Assembly (NCBI GenBank): GCA_964372485.1
Contig: CAYJQI010000001.1
Span: 192,001 to 256,000 of the forward strand
Direction of reading: 5' to 3'
Source: an uncultured archaeon
Lineage (GTDB): Archaea; Aenigmatarchaeota; Aenigmatarchaeia; CG10238-14; SCSR01
DNA length: 64,000 nucleotides
Shown here: positions 31,068 through 31,342 of the stretch, one piece after another
Numbering within the stretch: the stretch's first letter is position 1
Layout: each line of letters starts with the position of its first letter
Notes under the pieces: model-generated
Told to the model about the DNA's origin: nothing
The model's database searches: none
Seen by the model: only the letters and a program-made list of their open reading frames with translations
Translations under genes and position numbers: made by a program

Positions 31068-31232
31068 CCTTTAAATGGAGTTATCGTACGTGGTTTACGG
31101 CAAAATCAAAGTTTAGTTTTATTATATTATTATATTATTATAACATTGTTATAGTATAGTAGTAGTAAAGTTTTGTTTTTTCGAAGTTATAAATAAAATT
31201 CGTTTTTGACGACAGATTAACTAAAAATAAAT

Positions 31233-31342
31233 TCGAACCTTCGAGAAATATTTTTGGAATCTTCACAGAATTTAGTTTGAAATATCACAAAATTATGTTG
31301 GAAAGTTCATAGAAATTAATTGGAAGATTCATAAAAATTGGG
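31233..31342. repeat. Five head-to-tail 22-bp direct repeats (iteron-like array)
   Basis: Repeat units: tcgaaccttcgagaaatatttt / tggaatcttcacagaatttagt / ttgaaatatcacaaaattatgt / tggaaagttcatagaaattaat / tggaagattcataaaaattggg. Consensus TGGAAnnTTCAnAnAAWT with exact 22-bp phasing. Confidence 0.85.

Follow-up and report, generated by a model that had tools for sequence, protein, structure and literature searches.

What does a long non-coding spacer with regularly phased repeats do directly upstream of a replicative polymerase operon: does it control transcription of the operon, or does replication of the chromosome start there? We examined such a spacer in the genome of an uncultured aenigmatarchaeote (812 kb, 35% GC, approximately 90% complete), within a window of 64,000 nucleotides that corresponds to C1:192001-256000 of the 791-kb contig C1. 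The polymerase operon itself has already been described (Kazlauskas et al. 2020, PMC7544198); neither the upstream element nor the two winged-helix genes are mentioned in that work. A first-pass annotation of the window offered two readings of the repeats, an origin of replication with classical plasmid-like or ORB-like architecture and an operator array that controls the polB operon. The second is the better supported of the two; taken as a whole, that interpretation is borne out in part. The spacer is a real, phylum-wide and previously undescribed cis element, and it probably serves as a composite transcription-control region of the wHTH1/DP1-like/PolB operon.

Organization of the locus

Every gene round the array is encoded on the minus strand, in the order wHTH2, non-coding spacer, wHTH1, DP1-like protein and family-B DNA polymerase (Table 1). 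The spacer covers positions 31008-31328 (about 320 bp) once the start of wHTH1 is reset to the ATG at 31007. The TTG start at 31067 given in the list of open reading frames (30750..31067) is probably wrong: all relatives align from the Met of ATG 31007, and the public gene calls give a protein of 85 aa. The contig that carries the locus begins within a minus-strand 16S rRNA gene (C1:1-460) and has a 23S-like motif, on the minus strand too, at about 788 kb, some 3 kb from its other end; the assembly therefore breaks in the rRNA region.

Table 1. Features of the spacer and its flanking genes (positions within the window; for single repeat units, the first position)
Feature	Position	Strand	Sequence	Remarks
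Family-B DNA polymerase	26951..29656	-		901 aa; C-terminal Cys module; downstream operon gene
DP1-like protein	29665..30753	-		362 aa; downstream operon gene
Downstream operon genes together	26951..30753	-		DP1-like protein and PolB
wHTH1	30750..31007	-		85 aa; heads the wHTH1/DP1-like/PolB operon; candidate repeat binder
wHTH1 core promoter	31028..31045	-	AGAAAGTTTATAAAAAAC	BRE + TATA; matches the repeat unit at 14/19 positions
Promoter-proximal core	31058..31065	-	GAAAGTTC	inverted relative to the array; kept in L085; at about -55
AT-rich tract	31117..31170	.		27-bp pure A/T run, palindrome and TACTACTACTAT
(ATAAT)n-like pure A/T run	31117-31143	.		27 bp; second longest in the 791-kb contig
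Palindrome ATAAC-N3-GTTAT	31140..31152	.	ATAACATTGTTAT	probable operator of the XRE-HTH/Cys regulator heading the sufCBD operon
Motif next to the palindrome	31156-31167	-	TACTACTACTAT	adjoins the palindrome
Array of five 22-bp direct repeats	31233..31342	+	TGGAAnnTTCAnAGAAATTnnT	exact 22-bp register
Repeat R1	31233		tcgaaccttcgagaaatatttt	degenerate
Repeat R2	31255		tggaatcttcacagaatttagt	
Repeat R3	31277		ttgaaatatcacaaaattatgt	degenerate
Repeat R4	31299		tggaaagttcatagaaattaat	
Repeat R5	31321		tggaagattcataaaaattggg	contains the TGA stop of minus-strand wHTH2
wHTH2	31329..31715	-		128 aa in the public gene call; the ORF extends to 31730; alternative candidate binder

The repeat array and the wHTH1 promoter

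Both elements that the first-pass annotation described, a set of five phased repeats of 22 bp and an AT-rich tract, are real, the former in exact register over 31233-31342 and the latter at 31117-31170, and the last repeat does run into the end of the winged-helix gene, R5 containing the TGA of 31329..31730. What that description of the repeats had missed is the dyad GAAnnTTC in each unit and the palindrome ATAAC-N3-GTTAT. The dyad cores lie at 31235-42, 31257-64, 31279-86 (degenerate), 31301-08 and 31323-30, and the dyad is followed in the unit by A(T/C)A(G/A)AAATT. TRF reports the array with a period of 22, 3.9 copies, 75% matches and a score of 71. The distance from the array to the palindrome and the 27-bp A/T run is 80 bp. 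Iteron replicons are marked by at least three direct repeats, each 17-22 bp long and phased at about 22 bp, beside an A/T-rich region, and the locus possesses this feature.

A search with a position weight matrix built from the five units, which answers the earlier call for further copies of the 22-mer, found no other cluster of the unit in the genome. The 14-mer [GT]GAAnnTTCA[TC]A[AG]A occurs nine times in 791 kb; three of these occurrences are within the array locus and none of the remaining six is at promoter distance from a gene. With no second cluster and no other promoter-placed copy, a regulon-wide operator function of the 22-bp motif is ruled out. A chance repeat is ruled out as well, by the genome-wide uniqueness of the array together with the recurrence of its motif in orthologous spacers as compared with shuffled ones (see below). 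Finally, the spacer has no Rfam match at E<=1 and a fold z-score of +0.87, which rules out a structured RNA or a known RNA family.

The TATA box of wHTH1 is centred approximately 30 nt before ATG 31007, a position that implies a leaderless wHTH1 mRNA; genome-wide, TATA boxes are found at -27 to -30 relative to the ATG. A copy of the unit overlaps this core promoter: the promoter AGAAAGTTTATAAAAA agrees with the unit at 14 of 19 positions. In many relatives the likeness is complete, the wHTH1 promoter reproducing the unit GAAAGTTCATAAAAA exactly; such perfect copies are located 25-50 nt ahead of the ATG in L047, L051, L054, L062, L065, L068, L071, L073, L076, L078 and L081.

Conservation across Aenigmatarchaeota

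The order wHTH2-spacer-wHTH1 is found at all 43 aenigmatarchaeal loci with enough contig. In the first set of loci, it was present in 19 of 20, counting our own locus; the contig of the remaining one ends too soon. The spacers are 220-1485 bp in length, which is long for such compact genomes. Among 44 orthologous spacers, the motif TATGAAnnTTCCAA gives 99 matches, as opposed to 4.35 in shuffled sequences, and neighbouring matches on the same strand are spaced by 21 bp (15 cases), 22 bp (11 cases) or 44 bp (8 cases). The repeat is thus present at the orthologous loci, where its absence had been named as grounds for giving up the origin; its presence is compatible with either reading.

In the close relative L085 (88% identity in wHTH2), all five GAAnnTTC cores are kept and the nn bases differ in all five units, so that between these two genomes the dyad core is conserved and its spacer bases vary, as in an operator array. 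The AT-rich tract is 100% conserved in L085 except for the centre of the palindrome.

The spacers fall into two classes. Class A (25 of the 44, our genome included) comprises the array, the palindrome with its A/T run, and the promoter. Class B spacers lack the palindrome; they contain 3-5 units GAAAGTTCATAAAAA in either orientation and a wHTH1 promoter that is an exact unit, and the A/T tract is missing from these loci. The orientation of the array flips among lineages.

In several lineages (L039, L040, L048, L055, L057 and L065) the spacer contains an extra gene for a protein of approximately 210 aa, which begins with a nuclease motif of the PD-(D/E)xK/Cas4-like kind and has a winged helix at its C terminus. 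The recognition helix of this inserted protein, ISLEALRKRLKNL in the case of L040, is similar to the wHTH2 one. The spacer of L079 has an RNase HI-like ORF in place of the PD-(D/E)xK-like gene.

The palindrome and the suf operon

The palindrome has exactly two exact copies in the genome, one at the polymerase locus and the other at C1:663447 (663447-663459), where approximately three copies per genome would be expected by chance from base composition; its status as an operator follows from its conservation across genomes at one promoter position. The second copy is located 45 nt before the ATG, and abuts the TATA box, of the gene at C1:663492-663860, which encodes a regulator of 122 aa with an XRE-type HTH and a Cys-rich tail and heads the sufC/sufB genes. 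At -41 to -50 and abutting the TATA box of the suf-regulator gene, the palindrome is found in 19 of 30 relatives, with near matches in another three. It is present there even in G041, although the polymerase spacer of that genome lacks it. Judging from this placement, the palindrome is probably the operator of the suf-operon XRE-HTH/Cys regulator, and at the suf promoter it probably functions as an Fe-S-responsive autoregulatory operator.

At the polymerase locus, the palindrome is found in 25 of the 44 wHTH2-wHTH1 spacers. In one compared set, the 13 loci that carry it have it 136-158 nt before the wHTH1 ATG. In class-A loci the A/T run comes after the palindrome in the gene sense, matching the place of the TATA box at the suf promoter; the proximal TATA is approximately 112 nt away from the palindrome. 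With the palindrome as an operator within it, the easily melted tract therefore has an ordinary explanation. Taken together, these observations suggest that in class-A lineages the polymerase operon may be wired to the Fe-S assembly regulon.

A third suf-type palindrome, in the congener G007 (G007:C2:17165), directly adjoins the TATA box ahead of a Cys-rich ORF of 68 aa (DDLCDCKLCRK) and hints at a small regulon. A dif-like site is ruled out by the sequence of the palindrome, whose arms are 3 bp apart and not 6-8. The neighbouring TACTACTACTAT agrees with the WhiP-type origin inverted repeat of Sulfolobales at 11 of 12 positions; the genome has four such near matches, and neither TACTACTACTAT nor TAC trios are conserved in the spacers of relatives. 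The (TAC)4 motif of WhiP-type origins was set aside since it is not conserved there.

The winged-helix proteins

Both wHTH1 and wHTH2 are annotated as hypothetical proteins and are restricted to Aenigmatarchaeota. Neither has a significant match in Pfam (wHTH1 has two sub-threshold matches, wHTH2 zero) or a significant sequence match in PDB; among viral contigs, wHTH1 has one weak match and wHTH2 none. The wHTH1 proteins have an invariant N-terminal MKRGRP, which is AT-hook-like with its RGRP core, an invariant helix 3 (SWNTxxKY) and a predicted minimal winged-helix fold (pLDDT 90). For wHTH2, the prediction is a dimer-type winged helix (pLDDT 83), with RosR, MarR, PadR and TubR as the closest structures, all of them weak (TM ~0.5). 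Neither protein differs in its recognition helix between genomes of class A and class B, which fits binding of the universal GAAnnTTC unit and not of the palindrome.

A profile of wHTH1 can be aligned with the winged helix at the C terminus of the lineage's Orc1/Cdc6 (hhalign 91.5%). In a HMMER search of 1.8 billion proteins, however, the relatives of wHTH1 were mainly stand-alone proteins of 57-136 aa, with a few longer ones that have repeated internal matches, and no Orc1-sized protein with a C-terminal wHTH1 match was found. The idea that wHTH1 is a detached winged-helix domain of Orc1 was accordingly rejected. No Rep-family initiator encoded next to the array was found by Pfam, by PDB sequence comparison or among the HMMER relatives.

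A probable composite control region

The interpretation that we consider probable is that the ~320-bp spacer is a composite transcription-control region with three parts. In the first, the five 22-bp units would be operators with a GAAnnTTC dyad, placed two helical turns apart, so that dimers bound to them would all be on the same side of the helix. Additional copies of the operator would be those at about -55 and within the BRE/TATA of the wHTH1 promoter, through which a small local winged-helix protein may shut off or tune its own operon, with the distal array providing auxiliary sites for cooperative binding. Of the two winged-helix proteins, wHTH1 is the more likely binder, and its AT-hook-like tail could read the A/T flank; wHTH2 is the alternative candidate. 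The second part would be the palindrome as an operator of the suf XRE-HTH/Cys regulator, followed by the TATA-like A/T run; it would couple expression of the Cys-module polymerase to the Fe-S regulon in the lineage studied here. A strong, presumably leaderless promoter would be the third.

Several lines of evidence argue for this reading. The dyad core is kept while its middle bases vary between close relatives, motif spacings are 21, 22 or 44 bp across 44 loci, and the unit and the wHTH1 core promoter are one and the same in many lineages. The flips in orientation are tolerable for a dyad-binding regulator but would not be for a promoter or for an initiator site with polarity. Winged-helix genes with invariant recognition helices flank the array wherever the contig is long enough, and the array is unique in its genome, as expected of local autoregulation. 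The palindrome points the same way, occurring exactly twice and abutting the TATA box of the suf regulator in most of the relatives compared, as does the lack of an RNA family match or a stable fold in the spacer. The lineage also uses arrays elsewhere: an array of GTGAG boxes lies ahead of another wHTH-flanked gene (see below).

Other features are harder to reconcile with a control region. Sites that lie 225-335 bp upstream of the promoter, five in number, are far for archaeal regulators, and in the lineages with an inserted gene approximately 700 bp separate the array from wHTH1. To act at the polymerase locus, the palindrome would need a second promoter or action at a distance. In addition, wHTH1 could be an accessory subunit of the polymerase and not a regulator, and an origin of the iteron type is likewise compatible with this anatomy.

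Is the spacer an origin of replication?

That the spacer is a chromosomal origin of the iteron or ORB type, possibly one of two, is the strongest of the other explanations, and we regard it as unlikely, whether as the sole function or combined with a regulatory one. Orc1/Cdc6 or the stand-alone wHTH1 would bind the five repeats and the inverted copy in the wHTH1 promoter, the A/T tract would melt and MCM would be loaded there; the module might have been captured together with a PolB derived from a mobile element. The layout resembles that of ORB, DUE and ORB: five direct, phased units are followed, beyond the 27-bp A/T run, the second longest of the contig, by two inverted elements, GAAAGTTC (31058-65) and the copy in the promoter. 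However, class-B loci lack the tract that would melt, which here contains an operator of the promoter type, and the orientation of the array is not conserved. Of the origin architecture first proposed, the iteron-like anatomy stands, with its phased repeats, easily melted tract, flanking winged-helix genes and adjacent replication genes; the likeness to ORB does not extend to the core, the tract holds an operator, and most of the checks named with that proposal speak against an origin. The ORB core is quoted as TTCC-N4-GAA (PMC1904270), whereas the unit reads GGAA-N2-TTC; nor does the unit, which has no G-string, fit the ORB/mini-ORB consensus TTCCAGTGGAACT with its TTCC/GAA core from the same source.

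A location beside the initiator gene is usual, although not obligatory, for archaeal origins. The sole Orc1/Cdc6 gene of the genome (C1:89689-90687) is 133 kb from the array and has an upstream spacer of only 32 bp; it is packed between its neighbours (region C1:89668-90711), the downstream one of which it overlaps. This spacer measures at most 55 bp in 26 of 30 relatives, so the rule of an origin beside cdc6 cannot hold in the lineage. An origin next to orc1/cdc6 is therefore ruled out here, the nearby 'gaps' being a missed gene and tRNAs. This counts in favour of an origin at the repeat array, as does the absence of any canonical mini-ORB cluster from the genome. The module is also unique in the genome and kept beside replication genes throughout the phylum, in a setting that recalls oriC-cdc6-dp1-dp2 of Thermococcales (PMC1904270). 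The alignment of wHTH1 to the Orc1 winged helix and the WhiP-type match of TACTACTACTAT have also been counted in favour of an origin; against them stand the stand-alone size of the wHTH1 relatives, none of which is Orc1-sized, and the lack of conservation of the TAC trios.

The skew data do not place an origin at the array. In cumulative GC skew, our genome shows a broad plateau at 210-270 kb and its congener G007 one at 280-370 kb, with the array locus at the plateau edge. An inflection at the array was what an origin called for, and the sharpest switch from G>C to C>G was found 30-60 kb from it, at approximately 252 kb in our genome and 365 kb in G007, beside another array. The array locus is in the 15% skew percentile in our genome and in the 7% percentile in G007; in the distant G041 it is at no skew switch (47% percentile). 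In bacteria, a switch from G>C to C>G marks termini. The switch found here has this terminus-like polarity, which is also that of the terminus in the only DPANN genome whose skew pattern has been reported, where the origin lies beside cdc6 (PMC5905446). Gene-wise skew at third codon positions gave a GC signal that was not significant against permutation, so skew is not decisive either way. No convincing origin-like spacer was seen at the skew minimum (about 660-720 kb). As tests of polarity, tRNA orientation was uninformative (9/20 and 4/12) and the rRNA positions found were too few.

Beyond the right end of the window, by 10.5 kb, lies a non-coding region of 493 bp and 23% GC (C1:266569-267061) with approximately nine GTGAG boxes on the same strand, upstream of another wHTH-flanked gene. 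Its counterpart in G007 (359947-360425) is 70% identical overall and has kept the boxes, and in both genomes the region is approximately 5-15 kb from the strongest GC-skew switch. As a replication landmark, it is at least as good a candidate as the repeat array.

In its most specific form, the origin reading would make the spacer an aenigmatarchaeal origin that is unlinked from orc1/cdc6, is plasmid-iteron-like, is marked by the 85-aa stand-alone wHTH1, with its distant resemblance to the Orc1 winged helix, and was captured with a mobile-element-derived PolB that replaced DP2; initiation would be tied to expression of the polymerase through the iteron copy in the promoter, and the suf operator would link the two to the supply of Fe-S. 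We consider this scheme quite unlikely.

Possible promoter-like or centromere-like sites

The likeness between unit and promoter would also be accounted for if the units were TBP/TFB promoter-like sites, either tandem weak promoters or decoys, that send antisense transcription into the wHTH2 3' end or draw basal factors away from the true wHTH1 promoter. The unit GGAAAGTTCATAGAAA resembles the BRE/TATA of wHTH1, AGAAAGTTTATAAAAA, and in several relatives unit and promoter are identical. Yet the usual TATA box of this genome is TTTAAATA or TTTATAAA, and TTCATA shows no peak at -30 upstream of genes. The six copies of the 14-mer outside the locus are away from promoter distance, the orientation flips between lineages, and a dyad kept intact while its middle bases vary is suggestive of a dimeric regulator, all of which makes promoter-like sites very improbable.

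Least probable, by a small margin, is a centromere-like or chromatin-organising site, coated by a small winged-helix protein for segregation or local architecture on the model of TubR on tubC or AspA on the pNOB8 site. Centromere sites typically consist of direct repeats in a unique, phased array, and the fold matches of wHTH2 include TubR and those of wHTH1 the pNOB8 centromere-binding protein, but at a level as weak as many regulators and generic to winged helices. The unit also occurs in the promoter of the next gene, and the ORFs inspected between 24 and 36 kb of the window included no partner of the ParA, TubZ or SegA type.

Implications and comparison with known systems

The spacer is the one long non-coding element kept beside the unusual PolB/DP1 replicase across Aenigmatarchaeota. 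If it is regulatory, it would provide a first cis-regulatory map of an archaeal replicase operon and would point to a Cys-module polymerase being wired, unexpectedly, into the regulon for iron-sulfur assembly. Eukaryotic B-family polymerases depend on Fe-S, and such wiring would echo that dependence. If it is an origin, it would be a new type of archaeal origin. The parts of the element reduce to three small proteins and two defined DNA motifs and are directly testable.

Iteron plasmid replicons such as pPS10, R6K gamma, P1, F and pSC101 combine phased direct repeats of about 22 bp, an A/T-rich neighbour and a winged-helix gene downstream. The spacer shares with them the phased ~22-bp repeats, the A/T region, a small winged-helix gene directly downstream and a partial inverted copy in the promoter, as in autoregulation. 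In contrast to those replicons, the locus is chromosomal and archaeal, the winged-helix proteins have no detectable homology to Rep, and there is no skew switch.

With archaeal oriC, as in Sulfolobus oriC1 and the Pyrococcus oriC-cdc6-dp1-dp2 region (PMC1904270, PMC12141716), the spacer has in common TTC/GAA cores, an A/T tract, an inverted copy and an adjacent gene for a polymerase small subunit. Unlike the ORB elements of these origins, it is 133 kb from orc1/cdc6, its half-sites are reversed in order and 2 bp closer, and a G-string is missing; moreover, the repeats of the array are all direct, on one side, and variable in orientation between lineages.

Among archaeal regulators, Ss-LrpB binds three boxes in its own control region and NrpR recognizes GGAA-N6-TTCC operators. 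The spacer resembles these systems in its dyad operators, regular helical phasing, adjacent regulator gene and a site that overlaps the BRE/TATA. It differs from them in having at least five sites, up to 335 bp upstream, in the uncharacterised, Aenigmatarchaeota-only protein families involved and in its target, a replicative polymerase operon.

The palindrome has its closest parallels in SufR and IscR, the Fe-S-responsive regulators of suf and isc with operators of their own. In the literature searched, we found no earlier description of a second copy of such an operator upstream of a DNA polymerase operon. The regulator here is of the XRE type and is unrelated to either SufR or IscR by Pfam; as in those systems, however, a palindromic operator abuts the promoter of the regulator gene, which in this case heads sufCBD and encodes an HTH with a Cys-rich tail.
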